Shown piece after piece: positions 7,001 to 64,000 of a DNA stretch of 64,000 nt. The stretch is from Candidatus Sericytochromatia bacterium. GTDB taxonomy: Bacteria; Cyanobacteriota; Sericytochromatia; UBA7694; JACMQJ01. The stretch covers positions 907,305-971,304 of the forward strand of contig JAXLXH010000001.1 of assembly GCA_046328015.1 (NCBI GenBank). The letters are read 5' to 3'. Made by a program: the position numbers and the translations under genes. The number at the start of each line of letters is the position of its first letter. Position 1 is the first letter of the stretch. The notes under the pieces were generated by a model. The model did not search any database and was not told where the DNA came from. It saw nothing but the letters and a program-made list of their open reading frames with translations.

Positions 7001-7374
7001 TTATAAAAATTTTCATTTACAGATAAATCATTATCATTGGCATAAAACTGCCAAAAATTATCTTCAGCTTTATTATCGTATTTTTTGAATGATTCTGTAA
7101 TACCTGCTAAAACAATTACACGAGCTTTTTTTAAGATTTTTTCTGTGTCATTGGTAGATAAATTATTTATATGTTCTTCCGCTATAAATAATCTATGCAA
7201 AGAAATAGTAATTTCTATTATTTCTTCCTTTAATGATGATACATCAATACTACCAAGTCTTACTCTTTGATCTGCATGGTAAGTACGTTCATTTTTTATT
7301 TTTTTTCTGTTTTGTTCGATTATATTGAAATATTTTTCAACTTCTTCGACAAACTCTCTAGGGCTTAGAGCCAT
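4045..7374 (-). CDS. Hypothetical large protein, 1109 aa, no recognisable catalytic motif, TPR-like helical C-terminus
   Basis: Uninterrupted 3.3-kb ORF. Soluble composition. Confidence 0.6.
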   Translation of the reverse strand: MALSPREFVEEVEKYFNIIEQNRKKIKNERTYHADQRVRLGSIDVSSLKEEIIEITISLHRLFIAEEHINNLSTNDTEKILKKARVIVLAGITESFKKYDNKAEDNFWQFYANDNDLSVNENFYKKILEPALIEENIIPPNIKGKINYTDYIARESELSLSCLEDVIYLFKFYYKYFYPSIQLKEFFKEINFSITGYKSQLEFLGKESLVRQEVENTYKRLSEFQGKAELVIATLVSFVDFINRDNEPLSEDNLQNFCEKFNKHYSEELSYIFEHQEIKNDFVKNISSIPEYKFLSILENLDSKEEIILPNGNKTTAGQYFDEEHYLGLHTISGKAYNFFPQCFEETDLTSLEDEKISLCGNKLFIKSKNTFIPIVGNNDSHRKAVKLSLEGVESFIWYDNRPLYETISVESDFAEIESLLPKENIISSLALKIKNEESAPIFELHLENFILISQENKGKRLELINTDQISMLKDFPIDDVCYTGEIVYPIKDKRPGKIDILLIADKEPIHLSEFEARINYELEDNILFDGNSGMILKPSPYSIKYGPERLFLFTTKRFDYKWLNDSCEVYECKNFGRFHVYEIAWLNTAKPLNLSIDSDYRWNFSECINFKVSQKFQAYRNNYVEYEINQLLDIDDSHITLSSDISQIEFKDISIRALVNSSQTSNNISMGFVNELLERDVNSNVIDKNFIQKLMPEVNLTHGRYDFEFYIKGSYLGRYSIFIIPNLQGEEYSNSYKEDEEVILTLKSQIPCFRNNKNTQHYKFDNLAACDFSINANKFIDAKKTTHYKKAKLFMPFTEINIKYEPEVLAMKFNQDGRLYASNSIDYYNLDKTSIIIKSPFKDARLKVNHSVVKPLIANNAGIIIEPLKSIKQYLTKNDNAVSIQSGKHELEFSVIWNSKVQEVKNDPFINLSDNSLNFSITYEGLANSSLKFIVSDSNNNSIDVKKVFCEDDFAPKFIRIDRNSFSIICDGKKWENRRFSIFLDNNNLDNIEDIVVKGLFESTNENFEEMHFKGLPFAKEIDNLNKIISTDDKNPYSFFERGILYSDMNIYNEALSDFEKSLKNSIDDEKALEYIQFFKENKDAIVFERELKKVGVLVEKFVLEELN

Positions 7375-8073: not shown

Positions 8074-10320
8074 ATGAAAAAAAATATTAAAGGTATTGAT
8101 AAAATAGAAATTTCTAAAAATAATGATGGTGTTTCTATTGTTTTTGCAGAAAATGAAGTGGATTTATATAAAGGTTTAGGCTTTTGTCATGCAACGGATA
8201 GACCTTTACAATTATTATTAATGAGAATTTTAGGTAAAGGTTTAGCCTCTGAATTATTAGATTCTTCTGATGAACTTTTGGAAATAGATACTTTTTTTAG
8301 AAAAATGAATTTTTCATCTAGTTTAAAAACAGAAGTTGAAAAACTTACTGAAGAAAGTAAAATTAACTGCAAAGCTTATTGTGACGGTATAAACGAAGTT
8401 TTGAATAAAACTTATCCTTGGGAATTTAAATTAGTTGGTTATAAGCCAGAACCATGGACTATTGAAGATAGTATTCTAATTTCTAGGATAACAGGATATA
8501 TAACTTTAGCTCAATCTCAATATGAAATGGAAAGACTTTTTATTCAATTTGTTCAAAAAAATATAGGTATAGCTAGATTAAAAGAACTTTTCCCTAATAT
8601 TTCTGATGAAATTACTTCTGAAAATTTGGATTTGATAAAAAAAATAAAAGTATCTGAAACTATAGTTCCTGAAAGTATCAAATGGAATAATGTAATACCT
8701 AAAATGAATGCTTCTAATAATTGGGTTATATCTGGTAAAAAAACAAAATCAGGTAAACCTATTTTAGCTAATGATCCTCATTTGGAAACCAATAGACTAC
8801 CTAATATTTGGTATGAAGTTATGCTTAAAACAAAAGATAATTATGTTTTTTCTTCTACTATGCCTGGTTTACCAGCATTTTTATTGGGTAGAACTAAAAA
8901 TTTAGCTTGGGGTGCTACTTATACTTTTATGGATTCTGTAGATTCTTGGATAGAAGATTGTAAAGATGGTAAATATTTAAGAAAAAATGAATATATAGCT
9001 TTTAATAAAAGAAAAGAAGTTATAAAAAGAAAGAAAAAAGATTCTTATGAGATAACTTTTTATGAAAATGAATTAGGGGTTTTAGATGGAAACCCTAATG
9101 AAGAAGGCTATTATTTAATTACAAAATGGTTTCCTGTTTTTTCTGGTTCTAAATCTATAAATAATATTCAAAAAATTTTTAGAGCTAAAAATGTGGAAGA
9201 AGGTATGGAGTATTTAGGAAACTTAGAAACCTCTTGGAATTGGGTATTAGCAGATTCTCAAGAAAATATAGCTTATCAGATGTCTGGAATGGCTCCTAAA
9301 AGAAAAAATGGAATATCTGGTTTTTTACCAATTCCTGCTTGGGAAGAAGATACTCATATAAAAGCTTTTCATGACTATACCGAATTACCTAGAATAATTA
9401 ATCCAGAACAAGGTTTTTTTATAACAGCTAATAATAATCTTAATAATTTTGGTAAAACTTCGCCTATAAATATTTGTATGGGTGATTATAGAGAAAAAAG
9501 AATAAAACAATTATTAGAATCAAAAGAAAAAATTACTAAAGAAGATTGTTTTAAAATACATTATGATGTTTATTCTATTCAAGCTGAAAAATTTATGGAA
9601 ATAGTAAAAAAAGTTATAAGTAACTATAAAATTCAAGAAGAATTAGATAATATTTCATATAATTCATTTAATGGGCTAGTGTTAGGTGTTCCTCAAAATA
9701 AGCAAGAGTTTTTATTTAGCAAAGCTAATTTATTTATTTTAAAAAATTGGGATTTAAAATACGATTTATATTCAGAAGGAGCTTTTTTATTTGAATTATT
9801 TTATAAAAAATTGATAGCAGAAGTTTTTGGGCAATATCTAGGTAAAGATGTTATAAAATTTTTGTTAGAAGATTCTGGAATTATAATAGATTTTTATGAA
9901 AATTTTGATAACATTTTACTTTCAGAAAATTCTAATTGGTTTTATAAAGATAGAGATGAAATATATAAAGAGGCTATTTTATATGCTATTTCTAAAGAAG
10001 CTAAAAAATGGGGAGAAATTAATAAAATAAATTTAACCAATATCTTTTTTAATGGTAAATTACCTAATTTTTTAGGATTTGATAAAAATAATATACCGAT
10101 TAAAGGTGGAAGAGCTACAGTTCATCAGGGTCAAATCTATAAAAGTGGGAATAGAATAACTAGCTTTATTGCTTCTTTTAGGATGGTAACAGACTTTTCA
10201 GAAGATTATTTATATACTAATCTAATAGGAGGAAGTTCTGATAGAAGATTCTCAAAATTTTATCTATCAGGAGTAGAAGATTGGCAAAAAGGAATATATA
10301 AATGCTTGGGAAAAGATTAA
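8074..10320 (+). CDS. Penicillin acylase family protein (Ntn-hydrolase; penicillin amidase / acyl-homoserine-lactone acylase-like)
   Basis: 748 aa. SNNWVISGKKTKSGKPILANDPHL fits the N-terminal Ser nucleophile (S-N-x-W) of the beta subunit of the penicillin acylase family. Overall size and layout fit. Confidence 0.85.
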   Translation: MKKNIKGIDKIEISKNNDGVSIVFAENEVDLYKGLGFCHATDRPLQLLLMRILGKGLASELLDSSDELLEIDTFFRKMNFSSSLKTEVEKLTEESKINCKAYCDGINEVLNKTYPWEFKLVGYKPEPWTIEDSILISRITGYITLAQSQYEMERLFIQFVQKNIGIARLKELFPNISDEITSENLDLIKKIKVSETIVPESIKWNNVIPKMNASNNWVISGKKTKSGKPILANDPHLETNRLPNIWYEVMLKTKDNYVFSSTMPGLPAFLLGRTKNLAWGATYTFMDSVDSWIEDCKDGKYLRKNEYIAFNKRKEVIKRKKKDSYEITFYENELGVLDGNPNEEGYYLITKWFPVFSGSKSINNIQKIFRAKNVEEGMEYLGNLETSWNWVLADSQENIAYQMSGMAPKRKNGISGFLPIPAWEEDTHIKAFHDYTELPRIINPEQGFFITANNNLNNFGKTSPINICMGDYREKRIKQLLESKEKITKEDCFKIHYDVYSIQAEKFMEIVKKVISNYKIQEELDNISYNSFNGLVLGVPQNKQEFLFSKANLFILKNWDLKYDLYSEGAFLFELFYKKLIAEVFGQYLGKDVIKFLLEDSGIIIDFYENFDNILLSENSNWFYKDRDEIYKEAILYAISKEAKKWGEINKINLTNIFFNGKLPNFLGFDKNNIPIKGGRATVHQGQIYKSGNRITSFIASFRMVTDFSEDYLYTNLIGGSSDRRFSKFYLSGVEDWQKGIYKCLGKD

Positions 10321-10727
10321 TGGCAGTGGATCTAGGTACTAAAAGAGTTGGTGTTGCCTTAACGGATCCTCTAAATATAATAACTCAACCTTATAAAACT
10401 ATAATTTTTAGTGATAAAAAACAATTAGCTAAAGATCTTAATGAGATTATAAAAGAAAAAAATGTAGGTCTATTAGTTTTTGGTATTCCTAAAACTTTAT
10501 CTGATAAAGATTCTCAAAAAACTTTAGAAACTAAAAAATTAATAGAAGATTTAAGACCTCTTTTAGAGGAAATAGAAATTGATTTTCAAGATGAAGCTTT
10601 GACTACTACAGAAGCTCATGAAGCTATGAGAGCTATGGGTAAAAAACCAAGTAAAAATAGAGATTTGGTAGATCAAATAGCAGCTCAATTTATTTTAAAA
10701 GATTATAAAAATAGAACTAAAAGATAA
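10302..10727 (+). CDS. ruvX: Holliday junction resolvase-like protein RuvX/YqgF
   Basis: MAVDLGTKRVGVALTD... is the canonical YqgF N-terminus. The true start is probably the ATG at 10320, which overlaps the acylase stop (TAATGG). Confidence 0.85.
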   Translation: MLGKRLMAVDLGTKRVGVALTDPLNIITQPYKTIIFSDKKQLAKDLNEIIKEKNVGLLVFGIPKTLSDKDSQKTLETKKLIEDLRPLLEEIEIDFQDEALTTTEAHEAMRAMGKKPSKNRDLVDQIAAQFILKDYKNRTKR

Positions 10728-10730
10728 TTT

Positions 10731-13196
10731 TTATAGGATATTTAAGGGATCTATATCTATACCTAATCTTGTATAAGTATTTAAGTTAATTTCTTTATTA
10801 GATAGTTTTAAAAGGGTTCTTACATCATCTAAAGAATTAGTTTTAATAAGTATTTGATATCTAAAAAAACCTTTTATTTTTGGTATTCCTGCTGGTATAG
10901 GTCCTAAAATACTTTTTATTTCTGATGTTTTATTTTTTTTCAAAAAATTAGCTAAAATTTTACTATCATTTTTACAATCAGTTTCATTATTATTAGCAAT
11001 AATAATATTAACTAAGCTTGAAAATGGTGGATAATTCAAAGATTCTCTGGAAACTATTTCCTCTTTATAAAAAGCTAAAAAATCATGTTTTGAAGCAGTT
11101 TGAATACTTAAATGTTCTAAAGAATAAGCTTGAGCTATAACTTCACCCTTAGTATCACCTCTTCCTGATCTACCAGCAACTTGAGTTATTAATTGAAAAG
11201 TTCTTTCACTTGATCTAAAATCTGGTAAATTTATAGAAGTATCTGCTGTTATTACACCTACTAAAGTAACATTAGGAAAATCTAGACCTTTAGCTACCAT
11301 CTGAGTCCCAATTAAAATATCATATTCTCCATGAGAAAAATTATTTAAAACTTCAAAATGAGAATCTTTATTAACCGTAGTATCTCTGTCTAACCTTGCT
11401 ATTTTAGCATTTGGAAAAAGTTTTTGAGCAAAAGTTTCTATTTTTTGTGTTCCAACTCCAAAATGTCTAATATTTAAACTTTTACAATTTGGACAACTTG
11501 ACGGAATATTTTTGGTATCACCACAATAGTGGCATTTTAAAATTTCTGGATTATTGTGATATACCATAGAAACTGAGCAATTTTGACATTTTACACAAAA
11601 ACCACATTCTCGACACATAACAAAGGTAGAAAATCCTCTTCTATTTATAAATAAAATAATTTGTTCTTTTTTTGTCAAACGCTCTTCTATAGCTAATTTT
11701 AATTCTCTGCTAAAAATACCCTTATTACCTTCAGAAAATTCATCTTTCATATTTACTAGTTTTATTATAGGCATAATTTGATTTTTTACTCTATTAGGAA
11801 GTTCAATTAGTTTATACTTAGTATTATTTAGCGAATTATAATAAGTTTCTATACTAGGCGTAGCACTACCCAAAATTATAGTAGCATTATCTAATTCAGC
11901 TCTTTTTATTGCTACAGTTTTAGCATTATATCTAGGGTTATTATCTTGTTTATAAGAACTTTCATGTTCTTCGTCTATTACTATTACACCCAAATTTTCT
12001 ACTGGTGCAAAAATAGCCGATCTAGCTCCTATAATTATTTTAGCTAAACCATGTTTTATTCTTTGCCACTCATCAAATTTTTCGCCTTCATTTAGAGAGC
12101 TATGTAAAACAGCAATACAATCTCCAAATCTCTGTCTAAATCTTGAAACAGTTTGTGGAGTTAGTGATATTTCTGGAACTAATACAATAGCAGTTTTACC
12201 TTCATCCAAAACATAATTTATACAAGACATATAAACTTCTGTTTTTCCACTACCTGTAACTCCATGTAAAAGTATATTTGTATTTTTATTATCAGAGTCT
12301 CTAATTTTTATAAAAGCATCTAAAGCTTTTTGTTGCTCTGTATTTAAAGAAAAAATACTTTTATTTTTTACAGTATAATCTTGAGGTTTTCTTAAAACTA
12401 TTTTTTTTGAAATTTCTATACAATTTTTTTCTTCTAAATGTTTTAGTAAAAAATCACTAGTTTTAAAATCTTTTAATACATCTCTTAATTTTATATAACC
12501 GCTATTTTTTCTTATTAATTCAAGAATTTCTTCTTCTCTTTTGGTAAGCTCATCAGAGCTTTTTAAAAAAGTAACATATAAATGTTTTTTATGTTTAGAT
12601 TTATTTTCAAAAATAAAATTAGTTTTTATATAATCTATTTCTAATAATTTTCTTGTAAATCTAGTATAACCAGTTCCAAAATTGACTCTTAAGGTTGAAG
12701 TTTTAGCTGTTTTTTTTTCTAGTAAATATTCACAAAATTCTTGAAATTTACCTTTTGTATTTAATTCTATATAATCTTTAAACTCCTCTCCTGATACTTT
12801 TAGTTCTATTTCTTTTTTTACTTGAGTTAAAATTCCAGAAGGAATACTACTTTTTAGAACTTGTAAAAAACTAGCATAATAATAATCTGAAATCCATTTT
12901 ACTAATTCTATATATTTTTCTGGTAAAATCTGATTTTCACTAGCAGATAAGATTTCTTTTATAGTAATTTCTTCATCTAAATTATGTTCATTTTTTAGTT
13001 CTACAACATATCCTCCAACTTGATTTTCTTTTATTGGGACAATAACAGGAGTGCCTAAAAATATTTTATTTTCTAAATAAGTGGGTATTTTATATAAAAA
13101 AGTTTGGTTTTCTAAATCTGTATAAGCATCTATAAGTACTTCTGCGTATTGATAATTCATTTTATTATTTTTAGCCCTTTTTAAGTTTATAAGCAA
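10731..13196 (-). CDS. priA: Primosomal protein N' (replication restart helicase PriA)
   Basis: 821 aa. Walker A GVTGSGKTEVY, DEAH-like VIDEEHESS, two Cys4 zinc-finger clusters (CRECGFCVKCQNC ... CHYCGD...CPNC). Confidence 0.9.
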   Translation of the reverse strand: MLINLKRAKNNKMNYQYAEVLIDAYTDLENQTFLYKIPTYLENKIFLGTPVIVPIKENQVGGYVVELKNEHNLDEEITIKEILSASENQILPEKYIELVKWISDYYYASFLQVLKSSIPSGILTQVKKEIELKVSGEEFKDYIELNTKGKFQEFCEYLLEKKTAKTSTLRVNFGTGYTRFTRKLLEIDYIKTNFIFENKSKHKKHLYVTFLKSSDELTKREEEILELIRKNSGYIKLRDVLKDFKTSDFLLKHLEEKNCIEISKKIVLRKPQDYTVKNKSIFSLNTEQQKALDAFIKIRDSDNKNTNILLHGVTGSGKTEVYMSCINYVLDEGKTAIVLVPEISLTPQTVSRFRQRFGDCIAVLHSSLNEGEKFDEWQRIKHGLAKIIIGARSAIFAPVENLGVIVIDEEHESSYKQDNNPRYNAKTVAIKRAELDNATIILGSATPSIETYYNSLNNTKYKLIELPNRVKNQIMPIIKLVNMKDEFSEGNKGIFSRELKLAIEERLTKKEQIILFINRRGFSTFVMCRECGFCVKCQNCSVSMVYHNNPEILKCHYCGDTKNIPSSCPNCKSLNIRHFGVGTQKIETFAQKLFPNAKIARLDRDTTVNKDSHFEVLNNFSHGEYDILIGTQMVAKGLDFPNVTLVGVITADTSINLPDFRSSERTFQLITQVAGRSGRGDTKGEVIAQAYSLEHLSIQTASKHDFLAFYKEEIVSRESLNYPPFSSLVNIIIANNNETDCKNDSKILANFLKKNKTSEIKSILGPIPAGIPKIKGFFRYQILIKTNSLDDVRTLLKLSNKEINLNTYTRLGIDIDPLNIL

Positions 13197-13631: not shown

Positions 13632-14600
13632 TTGAGTGATAAAAAATATTGGGTTATAAAAATGACAGATTATCATGATTTAGGCTATAGAAAACTATTT
13701 AAAAGTAAAACCATTTTTACACAATTTTTAAAAACCTTTGTAAAAGAAGAATTTGTAGAAAAAATAGATTTTAATGAGTTAGAATACATAAATAAAACAT
13801 ATATATCAAAAAATTATCAAAAAACAGAAAGTGATGTAATTTATAAAACAAAAATACAAGATAAGGAAGCATATTTATATGTTTTATTAGAATTTCAATC
13901 TACAGTTGATAATTTTATGGCTTTAAGATGTTTGAACTATATTACCAATTTTTATATAGATTTATTACTTGAAAATAAGTATTTAGAATATTTACCTCCT
14001 ATTTTTCCTATTGTTTTATATAATGGAGATAAAAAATGGACAGCCCCCGAAAATATATCAAGTTTGATAAAAAACAATAAATTATTAGGAAAATATGGAA
14101 TAAATTTTAGATATTTAAAAATAGCAGAAAATGAGTATAAAAAAGAAGATTTAATAAAAATAAAAAATATAGTATCAAATCTTTTTATGGCAGAAGCACA
14201 TTTTGATATAGATGAAATGATAGAAGAAATCTCTAATTTGGCTGATTCTGAAACCGATAAAGAAGCATTAGATTTTTTTATTAATTGGTTTAAAAACAAG
14301 GCTATTTATGGTAAAATAGACTATGAGTATGAGAGAATTGAAGAGGCTTATTTGAGTAAAATAGAGGTAAAACAAGTGCTTTTAGAAGTTGTAAAAGAAA
14401 AACATGAAAAAATAAAGCTTGAAGGTAAACTTGAAGGAGAATCTATTGGCATTCAAAAAGGTAAACTTGAAGGCAAAATTGAAGGTATAGAATTAACAGC
14501 TATAAATATGATAAAAAAAGGCTGTGATAATTCTTTTATAAATGAAATAACTGGCTTAAGTTTTGAAAAAATTGAAGAACTAAGAAAAAATATCTCTTAA
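13632..14600 (+). CDS. Rpn-family recombination-promoting nuclease / putative transposase (YhgA-like, PDDEXK_7)
   Basis: DVIYKTKIQDKEAYLYVLLEFQSTVDNFMALRCLNYITNFY matches the YhgA/Rpn conserved core. The C-terminus has internal GKLEG repeats. Confidence 0.8.
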   Translation: MSDKKYWVIKMTDYHDLGYRKLFKSKTIFTQFLKTFVKEEFVEKIDFNELEYINKTYISKNYQKTESDVIYKTKIQDKEAYLYVLLEFQSTVDNFMALRCLNYITNFYIDLLLENKYLEYLPPIFPIVLYNGDKKWTAPENISSLIKNNKLLGKYGINFRYLKIAENEYKKEDLIKIKNIVSNLFMAEAHFDIDEMIEEISNLADSETDKEALDFFINWFKNKAIYGKIDYEYERIEEAYLSKIEVKQVLLEVVKEKHEKIKLEGKLEGESIGIQKGKLEGKIEGIELTAINMIKKGCDNSFINEITGLSFEKIEELRKNIS

Positions 14601-51957: not shown

Positions 51958-52845
51958 TTGTACCAAAAGGATTTTAAATTTATGACAAGTATAAGTTCTA
52001 ATATTTCAGCTAGAAATATTGATGTTAAAGCTATCGACCCAGTAAAAACAAAAGAAAACACACCTATTAAAGTTGAACAAGAATCTAAAATAGAAAGAAT
52101 CAATAGCCCTATTCCTCTTACACCTGAATCACACAGAGTTCTTAATATTATAGAAACTGGGATTAGTGAGTTTAAAAGTGGTAAACTATTTTCCGATTTT
52201 AAACTTGATGAAATTGGAAAAATAGCTGGTAATGTTACTAAATCTATAAGTGATGCTGCAAGTAAAGTTCAAATTAAAATAGAAGAAGCTTCTTCTAATA
52301 ATTTTTTAGATAAAATAGTTTCTGGAGCTAAATCTGCATTAAGTGCAGTTTTTGGTAAAAATAGTGAACTTATGGGCTTAATTGATAAAGGAGATAATTT
52401 TATTAAAGGTAAGTTTAAAGAACTAGATTCTAAAGTTAAAGATATTAATTTTTTAAAAGATTTAAAAGGAGCACTTGATAAACCAACAAAAGAATTTGTT
52501 TCTTTTATAAAAAAATCGGAGAATTTTATAAATGACAGATTAAAAGATTTAAAAATAAAACCTATTGATTTTAGTAATATGAATAAAGCGTTAGATCAAT
52601 TACCTTCAGCTGTTGATAAAATGTGTGAGAAGTTGCATCAATTTGTAAAAGATTTTTCTTCTAAAGGAACTTTACTTATAAAAAAAGCATATGAAAAAGG
52701 ATCTGATTTAACTAAAGTAGCAATTACTACCATAGATAAAAAATCTCAAGAAGTTGTTAATAAAGTTGATAATGAAAAGAAAAAAGCTGTAAATACTTTT
52801 AAAGAAACACAGAAAAAAGTTTTTAAGGATTTAAAATTAACTTAG
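51958..52845 (+). CDS. Hypothetical Lys-rich helical protein
   Basis: 295-aa ORF, no motif. The start may be the internal ATG (MTSISSN…). Confidence 0.45.
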   Translation: MYQKDFKFMTSISSNISARNIDVKAIDPVKTKENTPIKVEQESKIERINSPIPLTPESHRVLNIIETGISEFKSGKLFSDFKLDEIGKIAGNVTKSISDAASKVQIKIEEASSNNFLDKIVSGAKSALSAVFGKNSELMGLIDKGDNFIKGKFKELDSKVKDINFLKDLKGALDKPTKEFVSFIKKSENFINDRLKDLKIKPIDFSNMNKALDQLPSAVDKMCEKLHQFVKDFSSKGTLLIKKAYEKGSDLTKVAITTIDKKSQEVVNKVDNEKKKAVNTFKETQKKVFKDLKLT

Positions 52846-53895: not shown

Positions 53896-53904
53896 TTATA
53901 AGAT

Positions 53905-54010
53905 CGTAAGGCGTGAATAGTAAACAGTGAACAGTAAGAAGTGAAAAGTATAGAAGTATGCTCCGTAACATGTTATAAACTTATTATCTTTTCACTTTTT
54001 ACTTTTTTCT
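53905..54010. repeat. REP-like repeat, family 1 (CGTGAATAGTAAACAGTGAACAGTAAGAAGTGAAAAGTATAGAAG … inverted TTTTCACTTTTTAC)
   Basis: GTGAAAAGT core plus inverted partner. Confidence 0.5.
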
Positions 54011-54070
54011 ATATTGTATTGATTTTTTTAAGTATAATTTATTTTAAATATTTTATTTTTAAGGGAAATT

Positions 54071-54460
54071 ATGTCAGAAAATTTAAAAGATGATAACTAT
54101 TGGAAAAATAAATTAACTGAAGAGCAATTTGCTATAGCAAGAAAAAAAGGAACTGAAAGGGCTTTTACTGGAAAATACTGGGATCATAAAGAAAAAGGTA
54201 TTTATAAATGTATTTGTTGCGAAGAACCTTTATTTTCTTCAGAAGGTAAATTTGATTCTGGTTGTGGTTGGCCAAGTTTTTTTGTTCCTCTAGATTATGA
54301 AAAAATTGATGAAATTCAAGATTTATCTTATGGAATGATAAGAACTGAGATAACATGCAAAAAATGTGGAGCTCACTTAGGACACGTGTTTGAGGATGGT
54401 CCTAATCCTACTGGTTTGAGATATTGTGTTAATTCTGCTTCTATAAATTTTACTAAATAA
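54071..54460 (+). CDS. msrB: Peptide-methionine (R)-S-oxide reductase
   Basis: Two CxxC zinc motifs (CICCEEP…, CKKCGAHLGHVFEDGP) and catalytic RYCVNSASI. Cys form, not Sec. Confidence 0.9.
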   Translation: MSENLKDDNYWKNKLTEEQFAIARKKGTERAFTGKYWDHKEKGIYKCICCEEPLFSSEGKFDSGCGWPSFFVPLDYEKIDEIQDLSYGMIRTEITCKKCGAHLGHVFEDGPNPTGLRYCVNSASINFTK

Positions 54461-54560
54461 AATACTTACGTTTAAATTTTGTAATAAAAAACACCTGTTA
54501 TTTATAAAAGTAAATGGTAGAATAATATTGTTTCTTTACTTAATTTAAGGGAATTATTAA

Positions 54561-55520
54561 ATGTTTGATGTTAACGAAAAAGAGAAAAGAGTCCTCCCAA
54601 GTTGGATTTTACAAAATCTTTCTGACCTACAATTTAGTTCTATATACGATCCATTTGGTGGCAATCCTAAATTAGGAATGTATTTTAAGAAAATGGGTTA
54701 TCAGGTAATTACTAGTGATATTTTACAATGTAATTATTGGTGGAATAAAGCTTTTATAGAAAATAAATCTACCACTATTTCAGATAGATCAAAAAACACA
54801 TTGCTTAGTATAGATACAACTATAAGTGCCGTTTTTGCAGATTGGACAGATAGTTTTTTTACTATAGATGAAACCAGACAACTTGAAGTTTGGAGAAGTA
54901 ATATTGATAGATTAAAAGTTTCTGATGAAGAAAGAGCTTTACTTTATGTTGCAGTATATCTAACTATGGATTACTGGATTACTTATAATAAAAGATATTT
55001 CCAAACTAAAAACGTAGGTGCTGGAGATGTATTGAAATACTATATTGATGTAGTTAATAAAATGGTTTTTGATAATAATATGCCAAATGTAGCTTATTGG
55101 CATGATTCTTATGAAATTGCTAGTCAAATACCAACAGAACTTGTATATATTTACCCACCATCTAAAGATGGTTTTAGAAACTATAATATGAGATTTTACT
55201 TATGGGAATGTTGGACAAGAAGAGTAAGCCAATTAAATTTAGAAGGAGTACTTAACAAAGCAGAACATAGTAAATTAGGTGAAACTTTTAATGATATAAA
55301 TGCTTATTATAATGCTATAGATTCTTTTCTAAAATTAGTTCAATCTAATTCTATTTGGGTAGTTTCTTATAATGATCAAATTGCACCTAGTAAAGAAATA
55401 CTAATAGATATGATAAAAAATTATAAAAATATACACAAAGAAGTTGAAATTGAAATACCTTATCCAACCGCAGCAGGCTCTTTGAGTGTAAAAGAAGGCA
55501 TTATTATTGCGGTGTCATAG
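54561..55520 (+). CDS. Dam-like (D12-class N6-adenine methyltransferase fold) protein with degenerate SAM-binding and catalytic motifs
   Basis: IYDPFGGNPKLGMYF aligns with the Dam motif I region (FVEPFAGGGAVFF). TSDILQCNYWW aligns with the (L/V)NDIN motif. The motif-IV position has YPPS instead of DPPY. The N-terminal KWAGGK is absent. Confidence 0.5.
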   Translation: MFDVNEKEKRVLPSWILQNLSDLQFSSIYDPFGGNPKLGMYFKKMGYQVITSDILQCNYWWNKAFIENKSTTISDRSKNTLLSIDTTISAVFADWTDSFFTIDETRQLEVWRSNIDRLKVSDEERALLYVAVYLTMDYWITYNKRYFQTKNVGAGDVLKYYIDVVNKMVFDNNMPNVAYWHDSYEIASQIPTELVYIYPPSKDGFRNYNMRFYLWECWTRRVSQLNLEGVLNKAEHSKLGETFNDINAYYNAIDSFLKLVQSNSIWVVSYNDQIAPSKEILIDMIKNYKNIHKEVEIEIPYPTAAGSLSVKEGIIIAVS

Positions 55521-56378
55521 ATGATAAATAAGGGTTCTTTAAAAGATTTTAGATTATTTGATCTTTTAACAATTTTAGATCAAAGTAAAAAAAGTGGTAT
55601 TTTAACTTTAAAACTTAGAGAGTTTATTGGAAATATTTATGTAACAGATGGTTCTGTTATAGAAGTAAAAACTTCTCATCTTCATGGAGAAGATGCTTTT
55701 TATGAGCTTATGTTTTATGAGTCTGGAGAATTTGAGTTTTTAGAAGGAGAAAAATTTGAAGGTTCAAAAAACATAGAAAAATCTACACATGAGCTATTAG
55801 AAGAAGGTAATTTTAGAGTTACATTAACTAATTCACTTATTAAGAATTCTATTAATACAGATTTAAAATCTAAAATAATAATTGTTGATGAAAAAGAAGA
55901 TGATTTTATTACTATGATAAAATCAGGATTTGATACAATTATCTCTTTGGCAAGAGAGTCTAAAGTTTCTCCTAATGAATTTTCTCAGCATTTAGAATTT
56001 TTAATTAAAAATAATAATATTGAAATTGAAAAAAATATACAAAATGAAATATGGAGTTCTTTTCAAAAGCTTGTAAATACTACCTATAAAGAGTTTACGA
56101 GTATTAGTGGAATAAAAATGAATAAAGAACTTGATAAAAAAATACAAGAACTTATAGAAATTAACTCTTTGAATTTAGAGTTTAAAGATGGTAAAATTGA
56201 TACAAAGGATCTTTTTAAATTAACTTCAAACGAACAGATTAATATATATAAACTGTTTTTGAAGGAACTAAAAGCTTATGTAGTAAAGATATATGGCAAA
56301 GATTTTATAATAAATATTTTTGCAAGTGTGTCCGGAGTTGATTCTAAAACAATCGACTTATTAAATATTGAGGTATAA
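55521..56378 (+). CDS. DUF4388/PATAN-type domain protein
   Basis: FRLFDLLTILDQSKKSGILTLK…GNIYVTDGSVIEV…GEDAFYELMFYESGEFEF is the DUF4388 signature. ATG overlaps the preceding stop (TAGATG). Confidence 0.6.
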   Translation: MINKGSLKDFRLFDLLTILDQSKKSGILTLKLREFIGNIYVTDGSVIEVKTSHLHGEDAFYELMFYESGEFEFLEGEKFEGSKNIEKSTHELLEEGNFRVTLTNSLIKNSINTDLKSKIIIVDEKEDDFITMIKSGFDTIISLARESKVSPNEFSQHLEFLIKNNNIEIEKNIQNEIWSSFQKLVNTTYKEFTSISGIKMNKELDKKIQELIEINSLNLEFKDGKIDTKDLFKLTSNEQINIYKLFLKELKAYVVKIYGKDFIINIFASVSGVDSKTIDLLNIEV

Positions 56379-56405
56379 ATTAGGTTTAATAAAAGAGGTA
56401 TTTAA

Positions 56406-56825
56406 GTGCTTAATCCACAATTAACAAGTCTAATAGTAACAACTGAAGGCTTAAAAAGTATTAAGGATATATTGAACAAGCTTAGAGAAGAAACTAAAGC
56501 AAGATATATTCTTTTAGTAGAAAAAAGCGGTCAAATGATTACTAGTGTAGGAGAAGAAAGTCCTTTTTCTATGCCATTATCTGCTTTAGTAGCTGGTGCA
56601 TTTGCTTCTACTAGAGAAATTGCAAAACTACTTGGTGAAACAGAATTTAGTGTTATGTTTCAACAAGGTAAAACAAGAAATATTTATATCTCTGCACTCA
56701 GAACTCAAGATCTTCTTACAGTAGTTTTTGATGAAAGTGCAATGCTCGGTATTGTTAAGCTTAAAACAAAGCAAATTTCTGATCAATTAAGTGATGAAAT
56801 TGCAAGTATGTTAAGCAAAAAGTAA
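56406..56825 (+). CDS. mglB: Roadblock/LC7-family GTPase-activating protein MglB, GTG start
   Basis: Colinear similarity to Myxococcus MglB (YILLVEKSGQMITSVGE / PLSALVAGAFASTREIAKLLGETEF / LGIVKLKTKQISDQL). Confidence 0.8.
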   Translation: MLNPQLTSLIVTTEGLKSIKDILNKLREETKARYILLVEKSGQMITSVGEESPFSMPLSALVAGAFASTREIAKLLGETEFSVMFQQGKTRNIYISALRTQDLLTVVFDESAMLGIVKLKTKQISDQLSDEIASMLSKK

Positions 56826-56868
56826 TTACTAGTTTTTGTATAATATTAGGAAAGTCGAGAAGAATTAA

Positions 56869-57447
56869 ATGGCATTAATAAATTACTCAAGCAGAGAGAT
56901 ACACTGTAAAATCGTTTACTACGGAACAGGTTTGGGCGGTAAAACTACAAACCTAGAGTATGTTCATAAACAATTAAGCCCTACTATAAGAGGTGAAATG
57001 GTTTCTTTAAATACAGCTAATGAAAGAACCTTATTCTTTGACTTTTTACCTCTTGATTTAGGAAGTGTTCAAGGTTTTAGAACAAAATTTAGTTTATATA
57101 CTGTTCCTGGACAAGTTGAATATAATGCAAGTCGTAAGCTTGTATTAAATGGAGCTGATGGAATAGTTTTTGTTGCTGATTCTCAAATAGAAAAAATGCA
57201 AGAAAATGTAGACAGCTTAAGAAATATGGAAGAAAACTTAGCTGAGTATAATATGACTTTAGATTCAATTCCTTGGATCTTACAATATAATAAAAGAGAT
57301 TTACCTAATGCTGCTTCATTTGATGAGTTAGAAAGAGCTATGAATAGCAGAGGTGTTCCAGCTTATGAAGCTGTTGCTTATTCTGGAGAAGGAGTATTCC
57401 AAACACTTAAAGCTATTAGTAAAGAAGTTCTTAATAGATTAACTTAA
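56869..57447 (+). CDS. mglA: Ras-like small GTPase MglA
   Basis: INYSSREIHCKIVYYGTGLGGKTTNL, intrinsic Arg in ANERTLFFDFLPL, switch II YTVPGQVEY, NKRDL. Near-colinear with Myxococcus MglA. Confidence 0.88.
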   Translation: MALINYSSREIHCKIVYYGTGLGGKTTNLEYVHKQLSPTIRGEMVSLNTANERTLFFDFLPLDLGSVQGFRTKFSLYTVPGQVEYNASRKLVLNGADGIVFVADSQIEKMQENVDSLRNMEENLAEYNMTLDSIPWILQYNKRDLPNAASFDELERAMNSRGVPAYEAVAYSGEGVFQTLKAISKEVLNRLT

Positions 57448-57499
57448 AATCAAGATTATATAATTTTAAAAAATATTATTTTTATATTAACTCACACAA

Positions 57500-57545
57500 C
57501 CCCTGTCTAAATTATTAGAGAGGGGCATGTTTTCTATCTAATAAG
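57500..57545 (+). terminator. Imperfect hairpin CCCCTGTCT…AGAGAGGGG followed by a T-run, after mglA
   Basis: One mismatch in a 9-bp stem. Confidence 0.35.
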
Positions 57546-57611
57546 TCTTATAATACAATTTTGTATTTAATTTTTTCCTTTTGTAAAATTTCTGTTGAAA
57601 AAATAAAATTA

Positions 57612-57706
57612 AGACCTCTTTCGGGGTATTGAACCCCGAAGGAGGCTGGAGACGGGGCTGTGCCCCCGAATCCCCCCATTACCCCGAAGCAGAGCTTCGA
57701 GGAATT
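57612..57706. repeat. GC-rich nested-palindrome element, family 2, copy 3, intergenic
   Basis: CCTCTTTCGGGGT-ATTGAA-CCCCGAAGGAGG…GGGGCTGTGCCCCC…CAGAGCTTCGAGGAATTC. Confidence 0.75.
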
Positions 57707-57730
57707 CTATAAGATTAAAAAACTAACAAC

Positions 57731-57831
57731 CATTAAACTACGGATTAAACTCAGATTTATTTATTAATAATATGTATTCCTGTCTTCACAGGAATGACTA
57801 ATCGCTTTAATGTGTTCAATCTGTAGTTTAA
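57731..57831. repeat. Family 3 inverted-repeat element (CATTAAACTACGGATTAAAC … central hairpin ATTCCTG/CAGGAAT … GTTCAATCTGTAGTTTAAAA)
   Basis: Terminal inverted repeats of about 20 nt with 2 mismatches. Small enough to be a miniature inverted-repeat element. Confidence 0.5.
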
Positions 57832-57864
57832 AATATTCTATCCATACTTTTTTATAAAAAATAT

Positions 57865-58773
57865 TTATAAGTTTTTAGCTATTTTTGCACCAAGATTAGC
57901 ATTGTTTTTTATTAGAGCTATATTTGCTTCCAAACTTTTTCCATCAGTAATATGTTTTATTTTTGCTAAAAGAAAAGGTGTAATATCTTTACCTGTTATT
58001 TTTAAATTTTCACATTCGGTTAGGGCATTTTCTATAGATTCATTTATAAGTTTTTCATCCATAGAATATTCATCAGGAATAGGATTTCCTATTACAACTC
58101 CACCATTAAGATTTAACATATATTTGGTTTTTATAAAATCAGCTATTTCATTAGGAGTTTTTAAATTATAAAGAACTGAATAACCACTTTTTTTAGTATA
58201 AAAAGCTGGAAAATCTTCTGTATTATAACCAATAACAGGAACTCCAAATGTTTCTAAGCATTCTAAAGTTTTAGAAATATCTAAAATTGATTTTACACCA
58301 GCACAAACTACTGCTACATTAGTTTTCATTAGTTCATATAAATCTGCTGAAATATCCCAAGTTTTTTCTACTCCTCTATGAACTCCACCCAAACCACCTG
58401 TTACAAAAACTTTTATACCTGCCATTTCAGCAAAAATCATAGTACCTGCAACAGTAGTAGCTCCATTTTTTTTATTAGCTATAACATACGGAATATCTCT
58501 TCTACTAACTTTATAAACACCTTTAGCAGAACCAAAAAAATCTAATTCTTCTTTTGATAAACCAATTTTTATTTTACCTTCAATTATTCCTATAGTTGCA
58601 GGAGTTACACCATTATTTCTAATAATTTCTTCTACTTCAGAAGCAGTTTTTACATTATCAGGATAAGGCATACCATGAGAAATAATAGTTGATTCTAAAG
58701 CTACAATAGGCTTATTATTTTTCAAAGCAATTTTTACTTCATCAGAAAATTCTAAATATTTTTTTAAATCCAT
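57865..58773 (-). CDS. psuG: Pseudouridine-5'-phosphate glycosidase
   Basis: VALESTIISHGMPYPDN and overall IndA/PsuG pattern. Confidence 0.85.
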   Translation of the reverse strand: MDLKKYLEFSDEVKIALKNNKPIVALESTIISHGMPYPDNVKTASEVEEIIRNNGVTPATIGIIEGKIKIGLSKEELDFFGSAKGVYKVSRRDIPYVIANKKNGATTVAGTMIFAEMAGIKVFVTGGLGGVHRGVEKTWDISADLYELMKTNVAVVCAGVKSILDISKTLECLETFGVPVIGYNTEDFPAFYTKKSGYSVLYNLKTPNEIADFIKTKYMLNLNGGVVIGNPIPDEYSMDEKLINESIENALTECENLKITGKDITPFLLAKIKHITDGKSLEANIALIKNNANLGAKIAKNL

Positions 58774-59049: not shown

Positions 59050-60102
59050 TTATATATCATTATTAATTCCACAACTAGATAATAATTCTTTGGCCTTTAA
59101 TACAGCCTTATAAATTAAATCGTTATCATTATAAAAGTTATTATTACTAATATATTCTTTTACAATTTTTCTAGCAAAAGTTCCTATAGAAATACCTTGA
59201 AAACGTACATCATTTTGTTTAGCTAATTTAGAAGTTAAAGAATTAGTACCACCAGATAATAAAATATTAATTTCATTTTTATCTTTATAAATGCTTTTTT
59301 TAGTTTTTTTATCTATTTTTTTATTAAATCTTTTATTAACAATATCTGCAATTGATACTGCTTGTAATGTGGTATTAAAATCATCTTCTCCTCCACTCAT
59401 AGGGATTCCATCAGCTTGTATAATTAACCTATCTCCAGAAATTTCTTTGGCTTTTTTTATTCTTTTTTCCAAATCAAAATCGGATAAATGCTGTCTATCC
59501 AAGCACATAGAAACATGATTTTTAGCATTTATTTTATTTATTAATTCCCATTCTTTAAAAATAAAATCATCTTCTTTTATTCCGGCGTGTAATTCTATTT
59601 GTTCTGCACCTAATGATAAACATTTTGGTAAAAGCTCTTCTAAATTTTTATTATTATGTTTATAAAAAATAGAGTCAAAATGGCATATTGCACTACAATT
59701 TCCGCATCCAATACATTTTTCTTGTTTTATAACCAAATCATTTGGTATGGCATCTGTTGGGCAAACTGGAATACATAAATTACATGTAACACATTTTTCT
59801 AAATCTATAAAAGCTTTTCTTACATGATGATCTCCAGGCATTCCAACACTAACAGTTATAAAAGGATTAAAAGGTATTTTTATATCTAATTTTTTTGCAT
59901 AAAAATGTGATTGTTCTATACCTTCCATACAAGCTAAGACAACACTAGGAGTTGCAGAAATATCTAATCCTGAAGTCCCAGCCAGAGTATATATAATAGT
60001 TAGTTTTTTTACTTCTTCGCAATCTTCATTTCCTGCACCACAAACCAACTTAAAAAACTTACTTTTTTCAAGTAAGCTATTCATTAATTCAAATCTATCC
60101 AT
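59050..60102 (-). CDS. 4Fe-4S dicluster protein, LdpA-like family
   Basis: KLVCGAGNEDCEEVKKLTIIYTLAG N-terminus plus CVTCNLCIPVCP and CIGCGNCSAICH. Confidence 0.6.
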   Translation of the reverse strand: MDRFELMNSLLEKSKFFKLVCGAGNEDCEEVKKLTIIYTLAGTSGLDISATPSVVLACMEGIEQSHFYAKKLDIKIPFNPFITVSVGMPGDHHVRKAFIDLEKCVTCNLCIPVCPTDAIPNDLVIKQEKCIGCGNCSAICHFDSIFYKHNNKNLEELLPKCLSLGAEQIELHAGIKEDDFIFKEWELINKINAKNHVSMCLDRQHLSDFDLEKRIKKAKEISGDRLIIQADGIPMSGGEDDFNTTLQAVSIADIVNKRFNKKIDKKTKKSIYKDKNEINILLSGGTNSLTSKLAKQNDVRFQGISIGTFARKIVKEYISNNNFYNDNDLIYKAVLKAKELLSSCGINNDI

Positions 60103-61557: not shown

Positions 61558-64000
61558 TGTCGAAAACAATTCACGAAAAGACTGGAGTCTCGCAGACTCG
61601 GGTCAAAAATTATTTTATGTATTTGAGCATATTCTGCACGATGTTGCTCTCTACATTACTTTTTTCGCCTAAAGCAGAGGCGATAACCCCAGCTGGTACA
61701 ACAATAGGTAACATTGCAACTGCTACTTATGAAGATAGTACCGGAAATCCATATACAACCAACTCTTTACAAGTTAATACAGTTGTTCAACCTGTATATG
61801 GTTTTGATGTTGATAAAGATGGTACTAAAGTAACTCCAAATGCTTTAGTAACTCAACAAGCTACCCCTGGTAGTATTATTTACTATCAATATAAAATTAC
61901 CAATAACGGTAACGTTAATGATAATTTTACAATTGATAACACAGGTGTTTTAAATAAATTTTTAGGAACACCAGGTTTTACACCTTTAATTGATCCTCCA
62001 ACAGTTTATTGGGATAAAAATGGTACTGGTAATTTCCAAACAGGGGATCCAATACTTACTACTTCAACCCAATTACCAATTGCAGCTGGAGCTTTTGAAT
62101 ACGTAATAGTAGAAGTTAAAGTTCCTGCTGGAGCTGCTGCTGGTTCTTCTTATGAAAACAACATCGTTGTTAGATCTGTTGGAGATTCTACAGCAAGAGA
62201 TAATAATGAAGATTTGGTTGTAGATGGCGGTGGTCAATATGCAAAAGGTCAATGGAATAAAACAACCGTTGTTAATGATGCAGTTATTGACGTAGATAAA
62301 GCAACTAATGTTTCTCAACAAGATCCATCTGGTTTAATTACCTATACTTTAACCGTAAAAAACAACGGTAATAAAGATTCTCAAGGTGTTACAATCAGAG
62401 ACCCATTACCAAATTTTGTTGCATACGATATGGCTTCGGCTTCTTTACCAGCTAACTGGTCTATAGATTATTGTACTGCTACAACAGGAGATGGTCTTGG
62501 AAATGCAAATACAAATGCGTCTTATGGTGCATATACACCTGTGGCTACTCCGGCAACAACAACTGTTGATACAAATATCAAAGGGGTAAGATTTAGAACA
62601 ACTACAGCTATTATACCAGGTGCTAGTGTTTCTATTACCTTCAGAGTAAAAGTAAAACCTTATGGTTTAGCAGGTCAAACAGGTTCTCAATTAGCTCCAG
62701 TTACTACTGTAGTTAATACAGGTAAATTTGACTATGAACTTTTTGTTGCAGGAACACCTGTTACAGATAAACCGACTAATGATGCTCCTACAGATATCAA
62801 CAAAAAGCTTGCTGTTGCTGTAGAGCCTAATGCAGCTCAATTTGCTGCTCCTAATAACCATACTTCTTTAGGTGGAACAAGTGCTACAGCTTCTAATGTA
62901 ACCCCTGGAGATGGTCTTGCAACTGTTGCTGGTAGTGTTGCTGCAAACAGCTATGTTTATTTTAGACAAACCGTTACAAATAATGGTAACTCTACAGATA
63001 CATTTAACTTAACCGCTCATACAAGTCCAGCCCTTTTACCAGATGGTACTACAGCACCTGCATTACCTACTGGTTGGTCAGTATCTTTCTTCCAAGAAAC
63101 AGATACTACAAATGCTGCTAACAATACTTCTCCTGTAGTTGGAAACAACACTGGAAATATTGCACCAGGCGGTACTTTCAACTATATTGCAAGAGTATTT
63201 GTTCCTGCTAATGCAGCTACAACAACTCAAAATATTTATGTAAAATCTACCTCTACTTCTGCAACTGGTACAGCTTTAGGTACAACCTTTACTTTATTAG
63301 CAAATGATTATTCTTTATTAAGAATCACTGATGTAACTCCACCAGGTGGTAAAATCGAGAATATCGTTGGTGCTGCTACTGCTGCTGGAGCTTTAAGAGT
63401 AAGTAGAGCTGGAAACCCTGATGTTTCATTAACAGAATCTGCTAATGGTACAACAGTATCATTCCCATTAAGAGTTACTAATACAGGTTTAGTAAATGAT
63501 ACATTTACACTTGGAATTGGTGCTACAAATACTTTACCTTCTGGATGGACAGCTGAATATTATGATTTAGTTGCATCAGATAAAGTAACTGCTGTTACTG
63601 CTACAACTGTAACATTAAATAATGCGACAAACTTTGCTGTTGGCGATACCATTATTATTAATGGTCAATCTTTAACAGTTGGCTCTAAAGCTGGTAATGT
63701 AATTACTTTTGCTACTGGTCAAACAGTTTCAAATTTAACAGCTTATGCTGCTACAATTACCGCTACTAATTTCCCTACAGCTGTAAAACCAGGAAATATT
63801 TCTATAGTATCTACTGGTAATTTAGCTGCAAATGGTACTAAAGATGTAATAGCTGTTATTACAGTTCCTGCTGGAACAGCTCCTATTAATAAAAATCTTG
63901 ATTACAAAATTACATCTGCAAATGCTCCTACAAGTACAAGTGCATTATTAACAGTAACAGATGCTGTAGTTGTTCCAAACTTCAGAAGCTTTACTTTAAC
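61558..64000 (+). CDS. Partial CDS, 3' end outside the window: very large surface/secreted protein made of tandem DUF11 (conserved repeat domain) modules
   Basis: Frame open from 61558 to the window end. Repeated …ATPGSIIYYQYKITNNGN…, …DPSGLITYTLTVKNNGN…, …SYVYFRQTVTNNGN… modules. The signal peptide is better placed if the start is the ATG at 61618 (MYLSIFCTMLLSTLLFSPKAEA). Confidence 0.7.

Follow-up and report, generated by a model that had tools for sequence, protein, structure and literature searches.

The Ras-like GTPase MglA and its partner MglB are the model for front-rear polarity in bacteria; their upstream inputs and accessory factors outside Myxococcus are poorly known. Genes for PATAN (DUF4388) proteins are known neighbours of mglA and mglB (Makarova 2006, cited in PMC4316618). 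The PATAN domain of Synechocystis serves as an output domain and has PilB1 and PilC, two proteins of the pilus motor, as its binding partners (bioRxiv 10.1101/2021.06.11.447907). The subject of the present analysis is a four-gene module in which an mglB-mglA pair is preceded by a PATAN gene and, before it, by a gene (gene 1) for a protein derived from a DNA adenine methyltransferase (MTase) of the D12/Dam class. The module is located in a stretch of 64,000 nucleotides (nt) of contig JAXLXH010000001.1 (the window), which belongs to a metagenome-assembled genome (MAG) of Candidatus Sericytochromatia and is AT-rich, with about 26% GC. Sericytochromatia are the non-photosynthetic sister class of the oxygenic cyanobacteria.

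The first-pass annotation of the window held that the coupling of a Dam-like pseudoenzyme to an Mgl GTPase switch was undescribed, and it is indeed absent from the searchable literature. The full-text literature yielded no paper linking an MTase-like gene to MglA, MglB or PATAN, nothing on MglA in Sericytochromatia and nothing on the pairs of HD-GYP and pseudo-MTase genes described below. The word 'methyl' is absent from the key survey of prokaryotic small GTPases (PMC4316618).

Organization and conservation of the module

Four co-directional open reading frames (ORFs) on the + strand span positions 54561-57447, exactly as first annotated:

54561..55520, + strand: gene 1, D12/Dam-class MTase-derived protein, 319 amino acids (aa), first in the operon
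55521..56378, + strand: gene 2, PATAN/DUF4388 protein, 285 aa, abutting gene 1
56406..56825, + strand: gene 3, MglB, a Roadblock/LC7 GTPase-activating protein (GAP), 139 aa, GTG start
56869..57447, + strand: gene 4, MglA, a polarity GTPase of the Ras superfamily, 192 aa

The stop codon of gene 1 (TAG) is followed directly by the ATG of gene 2, in the same reading frame and without a gap. The two codons had been described as overlapping, which is true only of relatives: several have an overlap of 1 or 4 nt, and the others a spacing of 28-54 nt. The mglB gene is located 43 nt upstream of mglA, and it is upstream of mglA in all the complete related loci too.

The gene 1 family is small, with 26 clusters in 5.8 billion proteins; its members are 317-328 aa long and 36-88% identical, and the named ones come from Sericytochromatia. 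A scan of GTDB species representatives gave 16 loci, all in Sericytochromatia, Blackallbacteria or Cyanobacteriota MAGs, and an exhaustive profile search added remoter members, at about 23-30% identity, which are found in Sericytochromatia/Cyanobacteria MAGs with the same four genes. All ORFs of 29 related loci were scored with local hidden Markov models. The order MTase-like gene, PATAN, mglB, mglA is present in every one of the 29 loci, 26 of which are complete and three cut by the end of a contig. These loci span GC contents of 0.23-0.69 and identities of the MTase-like protein down to about 23%, and their flanks vary between lineages; on the upstream side there may be, for instance, a gene for a 2-oxoglutarate (2OG) oxygenase, one for a polyprenyl synthase, or LysM-PilZ-SLH genes. 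Since the same order persists between differing flanks, the adjacency is not due to chance. The four-gene order, noticed in one genome, is conserved in its relatives, and by this synteny the module is a conserved, lineage-specific operon of the class Sericytochromatia.

The reverse test, which started from MglA and covered 80 metagenomic loci, found the MTase-like and PATAN genes at three loci only, those of the closest MglAs (79-81% identity) that have enough DNA upstream. The MTase-like gene was undetected at every locus of this set whose MglA is 75% identical or less.

Fold and motifs of gene 1

Gene 1 matches the Pfam family MethyltransfD12 (PF02086) with an E-value of 1.7e-7 and 31.7 bits (cut-off 22), and the match covers profile positions 5-246 of 253. 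An AlphaFold2 model of the protein has a predicted local distance difference test score (pLDDT) of 88 and a predicted TM-score (pTM) of 0.88. Foldseek against the PDB gave E. coli Dam for each of the top seven matches of this model (E 7.5e-6 to 1.5e-4, probability 1.0). The earlier description of gene 1 as a Dam-like D12 protein with active-site substitutions is borne out by both searches. The direct sequence route to the solved Dam structures, by phmmer of the protein and by the family profile against the PDB, produced nothing useful, nor did hhalign with one authentic Dam sequence of E. coli. The link to Dam was made via Pfam, via Foldseek and via a bridge through active relatives carrying DPPY. 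The nearest of these active relatives are bona fide D12 enzymes, which match PF02086 with E 1e-19 to 1e-40 and have motifs IV and X intact. On this evidence gene 1 is a descendant of a D12/Dam-class DNA adenine methyltransferase.

The remnants of the MTase motifs in gene 1 are as follows:

54654..54662, + strand: motif I remnant F32-G33-G34 in 'DPFGGN'; F32 and G34 are kept clade-wide and the second Gly of GxG is replaced
54717..54719, + strand: acidic residue of motif II, D53 in 'TSDIL', retained in the Mgl-linked and HD-linked pseudo-MTases; the active relatives have 'NDxL'
55152..55163, + strand: degenerate motif IV 'YPPS', residues 198-201, replacing DPPY in an hmmalign alignment with intact-DPPY relatives; only P200 is invariant

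The 'IYPPS' of the window aligns column for column under the 'FDPPY' of the active relatives, 58 representatives of which have DPPY. Throughout the degenerate family, the first residue of motif IV may be Y, N, S, F, V, A, C, R, Q or H and the second P, L, F or V; the third is an invariant P, and the fourth is variable and non-aromatic, most commonly S, A, G, T or P (D also occurs). The active relatives possess an N-terminal motif X of the form '[QR]Y[LI]G[SN]K' (YxGxK), and their profile 'rYiGsK' aligns with the KWAGGK of Dam. This motif is missing from every member of the degenerate clade. Both the replacement of DPPY by YPPS and the loss of KWAGGK had been read correctly from the single sequence, and both turn out to be family-wide.

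Selection, conservation and charge of gene 1

The ratio of non-synonymous to synonymous substitution rates (dN/dS) of gene 1, relative to the closest orthologue, is 0.098. In a set of 40 Mgl-linked members, 17 residues reach a conservation of 95% or more. They cluster in the helical insert, which corresponds to the DNA-recognition domain of Dam (F92, W95, T101, E104, W111, Y138, W139 and Y161), and, as a second group, around the old catalytic loop (P200, G204, E216 and W218). Because motifs X and IV are lost and purifying selection is strong, gene 1 is, as far as can be read from its sequence, a maintained pseudoenzyme, the motif losses being common to the whole family. The word 'fossil', which had been applied to it, is misleading for a protein with such a dN/dS and with invariant motifs of its own.

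The pseudo-MTases are acidic, with a median isoelectric point (pI) of 5.06 and a net charge of -9, versus a median pI of 8.61 and a net charge of +4 in the active DPPY relatives. The pI of the window protein is 5.3, and that of its helical insert alone is 5.06. This acidity argues against retained DNA binding, and gene 1 is probably not a DNA-binding protein.

JGI and NCBI label some members of the family (P0005, P0015 and P0272) 'adenine-specific DNA methylase' or 'DNA adenine methylase', though motifs X and IV are absent. The annotation of members as 'DNA adenine methylase' is probably wrong. Such mis-annotation is likely to be systematic and would mislead methylome and restriction-modification (RM) surveys of Sericytochromatia lineages.

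Related pseudo-methyltransferases with HD-GYP partners

With clustering at 50%, about 33 representatives share the degenerate motifs of gene 1. Among them is a large Eremiobacterota subgroup, 304 aa long and annotated only as 'hypothetical protein', which is not near mgl genes. The start of the Eremiobacterota pseudo-MTase gene overlaps the stop of an upstream HD_5 gene by 4 nt, and a PilZ gene is nearby. Two other lineages have comparable pairs; the loci are:

L023:4820-6915, L024:4817-6915 and L025:4859-6915: HD_5 gene followed by pseudo-MTase gene, Eremiobacterota, 4-nt overlap
L027:1-1688: HD_5 gene followed by pseudo-MTase gene, other lineage, 4-nt overlap
L029:4411-5936: HD_5 gene followed by pseudo-MTase gene, other lineage, 11-nt gap

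In the two other lineages the pseudo-MTases are P0045 and P0031, each adjoining a gene of the HD-GYP type, and P0056 is a natural fusion, in which HD_5 occupies residues 38-188 and the pseudo-MTase residues 300-572. The HD-GYP signature 'HDIG ... HHE..DG.GYPD' is intact in the two pairs from other lineages and in P0056. The Eremiobacterota HD-GYP partner is degenerate, having lost the HD and HHE motifs, so that both partners seem to be pseudoenzymes there.

The HD-linked and the Mgl-linked pseudo-MTases have F32, G34, D53, P200, E216 and W218 in common, as well as the acidity. A rough neighbour-joining (NJ) tree puts the Mgl-linked proteins in a single clade and places the degenerate groups together, apart from the DPPY enzymes. 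The pairing and fusion of the sister clades with HD-GYP proteins suggest that the pseudo-MTase clade is a general regulatory or sensor partner of signalling proteins. This acidic, motif-dead D12 clade would be a family of pseudoenzymes, derived from DNA methylases and recruited into signalling, that had so far gone unremarked.

The PATAN protein

Gene 2 had been assigned to the DUF4388/PATAN type, and the Pfam check agrees: residues 4-96 match PF14332 (DUF4388) with E 8.8e-15 and 55.3 bits (cut-off 25). The protein is 100% identical to an NCBI entry named 'DUF4388 domain-containing protein [Candidatus Sericytochromatia bacterium]'. In its AlphaFold2 model (pLDDT 79) the PATAN domain is followed by a long helix, then by a small beta-alpha-alpha-alpha-beta unit and finally by a helical C-terminal domain. 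The last of these is specific to the module:

56037..56315, + strand: module-specific C-terminal domain of the PATAN protein, residues ~173-265, signature 'F.SISG[ILV]K[ML] ... [IV]YG..F'

The signature was read from invariant alignment columns, and it persists in the remotest Mgl-linked orthologues. The dN/dS of the gene, again with the closest orthologue, is 0.348. A receiver domain is absent (there is no Pfam Response_reg match at E up to 1), so the protein is not a PatA-type response regulator. The model gave zero significant Foldseek matches in the PDB, phmmer against the PDB likewise gave none, and the C-terminal domain has no match in Pfam. The idea that this domain is a cryptic HD domain, which would unify the Mgl-linked and HD-linked contexts, was rejected, as hhalign with HD_5 gave a probability of 0.1%.

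Two loci contain unusual PATAN genes. In MAG UBA7694 (L022:217-1298) the gene appears as two overlapping ORFs, perhaps through a frameshift or an error of assembly, or because it is a genuine pseudogene. The locus of the KatS3mg068 Sericytochromatia MAG (L001) encodes a second PATAN protein, a PatA-type regulator of 386 aa with Response_reg and PatA_N (10062-11222, - strand). This gene and that of a 404-aa protein with zero Pfam matches (L001:8833-10047, - strand) are convergent to the four-gene module and stand right after it.

MglA and MglB

The identities of MglA, with its intrinsic arginine, and MglB are those first assigned. Residues 1-191 of MglA, its full length, match Myxococcus xanthus MglA (6hjh_A) with E 1.7e-77, and the match to Thermus MglA (3t12_A) has E 1e-69. 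The P-loop GTGLGGKTT, R53 ('ERTLFFDF'), Q82 ('VPGQV') and NKRD are present, and the P-loop, R53 and Q82 align with the M. xanthus residues. These features, together with the mglB gene directly upstream, place gene 4 in group 1 of the MglA-family small GTPases. MglB contains a Robl_LC7 domain (PF03259, E 1.3e-7, 31.7 bits, cut-off 23) and matches M. xanthus MglB (6h5b_B) with E 1.5e-19 and Thermus MglB (1j3w) with E 2.5e-15. On the NCBIfam model of the Thermus-type equivalog it scores 75 bits, under the cut-off of 200, and it is therefore not that narrow equivalog. The dN/dS values for the closest orthologues are 0.057 for MglB and 0.046 for MglA. By their motifs and structural matches both proteins are orthodox.

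Proposed role of the module

The arrangement is best described as an MglA/MglB polarity switch which would be supplied, from one operon, with two dedicated accessory proteins. The reading that we favour, and hold on balance to be probable, is that the product of gene 1 is a non-catalytic regulatory subunit of the MglA/MglB switch, with the PATAN protein as an adaptor. The gene 1 product would most likely neither methylate nor bind DNA. It would be produced in constant proportion to the PATAN protein, bind PATAN and/or MglB/MglA, and feed an input into the switch. The PATAN protein would most likely be the output adaptor to a pilus or polarity machine, by analogy with Synechocystis, and a pilus or motility output of the module is a conjecture from the same analogy. 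The gene 1 product may also bind S-adenosylmethionine (SAM) or S-adenosylhomocysteine (SAH), or another adenosine-containing ligand, as a metabolite sensor. Such binding is possible because the Phe and Gly of motif I and the Asp of motif II survive in every clade. In its widest form this idea would make gene 1 the founder of a prokaryotic family of MTase-fold ligand sensors, responding to SAM/SAH or another adenosine nucleotide and having either PATAN-MglB-MglA or HD-GYP phosphodiesterases as outputs; put so broadly, it is a tentative and unlikely proposal.

Several observations weigh against the regulatory-subunit reading. The fold match between gene 1 and Dam is weak in TM-score (0.39-0.50), and the grouping of the pseudo-clades comes from a rough NJ tree. 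All the organisms concerned are uncultured, and type IV pilus genes were not found among the 20 further ORFs of the window that were tested. As for ligand binding, most members have lost the second Gly of motif I, and motif X, which is gone here, contributes to the AdoMet (SAM) pocket in the alpha-class enzymes, as in the Dam and DpnM structures.

It is unlikely, though a case can be made for it, that gene 1 is an active SAM-dependent MTase which has been retargeted to a protein of the module (MglA, MglB or PATAN), to part of the pilus or to a small molecule, and whose methylation tunes the switch. The preservation in all clades of Phe and Gly in motif I and of Asp in motif II, the high conservation of the old catalytic loop (P200, G204, E216, W218) and the strong purifying selection would all fit such an enzyme, and many class I MTases which act on proteins or small molecules lack (D/N)PP(Y/F). 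Against this, motif X is gone in every member, the second Gly of motif I is lost, and positions 1 and 4 of motif IV vary, with no evident conserved residue for catalysis or for positioning a substrate. Considerably less probable is a Dam-derived DNA 'reader', non-catalytic, which would couple recognition of DNA or the chromosome to the Mgl switch. It was one of the roles suggested in the first-pass annotation, and it draws on the ancestry of the protein in a sequence-specific DNA enzyme and on the insert homologous to the target-recognition domain of Dam being its best conserved part. The conserved residues of that insert, however, are mostly aromatic or hydrophobic (F92, W95, W111, Y138, W139, Y161) and not basic. 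The net charge of about -9 (pI 5.06, the same as that of the insert) versus +4 (pI 8.61) in the active relatives, and the pairing and fusion of the sister clades with HD-GYP signalling domains rather than with DNA-related genes, disfavour it further.

That gene 1 is an RM or defence remnant, or a chance neighbour with no functional link to MglA/MglB, is scarcely credible. PADLOC models of Type II MTases do match its N-terminal half, with a best E of 3.3e-20, and some members carry the 'DNA adenine methylase' labels of NCBI and JGI. But the PADLOC match is to the generic MTase_II only, genes 2-4 give zero PADLOC matches, no nuclease or other defence gene is nearby, and the loss of catalytic motifs extends to the whole family. 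With housekeeping genes on its flanks and class-wide inheritance, the module gives no support to the defence role once suggested for it. The invariable order in all 29 loci, across a large divergence and varying flanks, together with the dN/dS of 0.098, speaks against both a remnant and chance, and the spread in GC and identity argues against one recently transferred element. Synteny and selection effectively refute the remnant and chance-adjacency readings.

The co-inherited and constrained pseudo-MTase and the PATAN protein with its private C-terminal domain are concrete new candidates for regulators of the Mgl switch. If the sensor proposal is true, polarity or pilus motility in Sericytochromatia would respond directly to the methyl cycle or the metabolic state.

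Surroundings of the module and other features of the window

The neighbours of the module are housekeeping genes: msrB upstream, a convergent gene for pseudouridine-5'-phosphate glycosidase (psuG) downstream, and nuo genes further upstream, nuoD/nuoH being about 3 kb from the module. In the high-GC Sericytochromatia loci L026 (1975-5985), L030 (772-4970) and L031 (790-4970), a set of LysM, PilZ (weak), SLH and CarboxypepD_reg genes precedes the module in the same orientation, with nuo genes beyond. Part of the wider neighbourhood, on the nuo side, may be ancestral.

The scan of the region for promoters and terminators was uninformative in such AT-rich DNA, with 27 promoter-like sites versus 23 expected; terminator-like sites in the scanned region (53900-58000) number 4 versus 0.9 expected. 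A terminator-like hairpin with a 7-bp stem, followed by a T-run, is present on both strands at 55677-55695, inside the PATAN coding region. The Rfam search of the window found zero RNA families.

In the circadian clock of cyanobacteria LdpA is an input component that senses redox state, which makes a match to it in the non-photosynthetic Sericytochromatia curious. The match (LdpA_C E 3.7e-7, LdpA_Fe-S-bd E 6.3e-7) is one of the other features of the window:

59050-60102, - strand: 350-aa iron-sulphur (Fe-S) protein with the LdpA_C and LdpA_Fe-S-bd matches
2604-4031, - strand, and 4045-7374, - strand: adjacent ORFs of 475 and 1109 aa with zero Pfam matches at E up to 1e-4, adjoining an ABC-2 transporter pair
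13632-14600, + strand: YhgA-like putative transposase (PF04754 Transposase_31, E 8e-28), TTG start, the only mobile-element-like gene in the tested part of the window
51958-52845, + strand: 295-aa lysine-rich, probably all-helical protein, TTG start, with only weak, sub-threshold apolipophorin- and spectrin-like matches and assigned to no family
62001-64000: region with a GC content of 0.37 versus about 0.26 in the rest of the window and with zero Rfam families

Comparison with known systems

The mglBA genes of M. xanthus and T. thermophilus likewise have mglB immediately upstream of mglA, and the M. xanthus MglA shares Arg53 and Gln82 with that of the window. Unlike them, the Sericytochromatia pair is always preceded by the MTase-like and PATAN genes, the four being described as co-transcribed. 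M. xanthus MglB has a chain of 160 residues, of which the alignment with the MglB of the window covers 4-136 only; the C-terminal tail is therefore missing from the window protein.

Gene 1 has the same order of elements as E. coli Dam and the D12 alpha-group, namely motif I, motif II, helical insert and motif IV. Unlike Dam, it carries YPPS for DPPY, is without KWAGGK/YxGxK, and is acidic rather than basic; unlike orphan or RM-linked Dam-class genes, it is embedded in a signalling operon. In the HD-GYP and pseudo-MTase pairs the HD-GYP partner is upstream and a GTPase is absent, whereas in Sericytochromatia PATAN, MglB and MglA are downstream.

Roadblock domains, the kind found in MglB, also occur in the Rag GTPases and their regulators. 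SAMTOR, a SAM sensor of the eukaryotic mTORC1 pathway with a class I MTase fold, an altered GxGxG and no basic cleft, controls GATOR1, the GAP complex for the Rag GTPases (PMC10883374). Were the sensor proposal true, the Sericytochromatia module would be the bacterial counterpart of this control of a Roadblock-containing Rag GTPase system. The resemblance is one of analogy and not of homology: there is no detectable sequence relationship, SAMTOR belongs to a Bmt2-like MTase lineage, the GTPases and outputs are other ones, and SAM binding is established for SAMTOR only.

The genomic association of PATAN proteins with mglA and mglB, to the extent that it is set out in the cited accounts (Makarova et al. 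2006; Wuichet & Sogaard-Andersen 2015), is reproduced here. The N-terminal PATAN domain is shared with the PatA-type proteins PixG and PixE of Synechocystis; here it occurs without a receiver and with a module-specific C-terminal domain, and, unlike those of published PATAN proteins, the gene is strictly paired with an MTase-like gene. MglA, MglB, PATAN and the association of PATAN with MglB and MglA were thus already known; what this locus adds to them is the dedicated pseudo-MTase partner and the private C-terminal domain of the PATAN protein.

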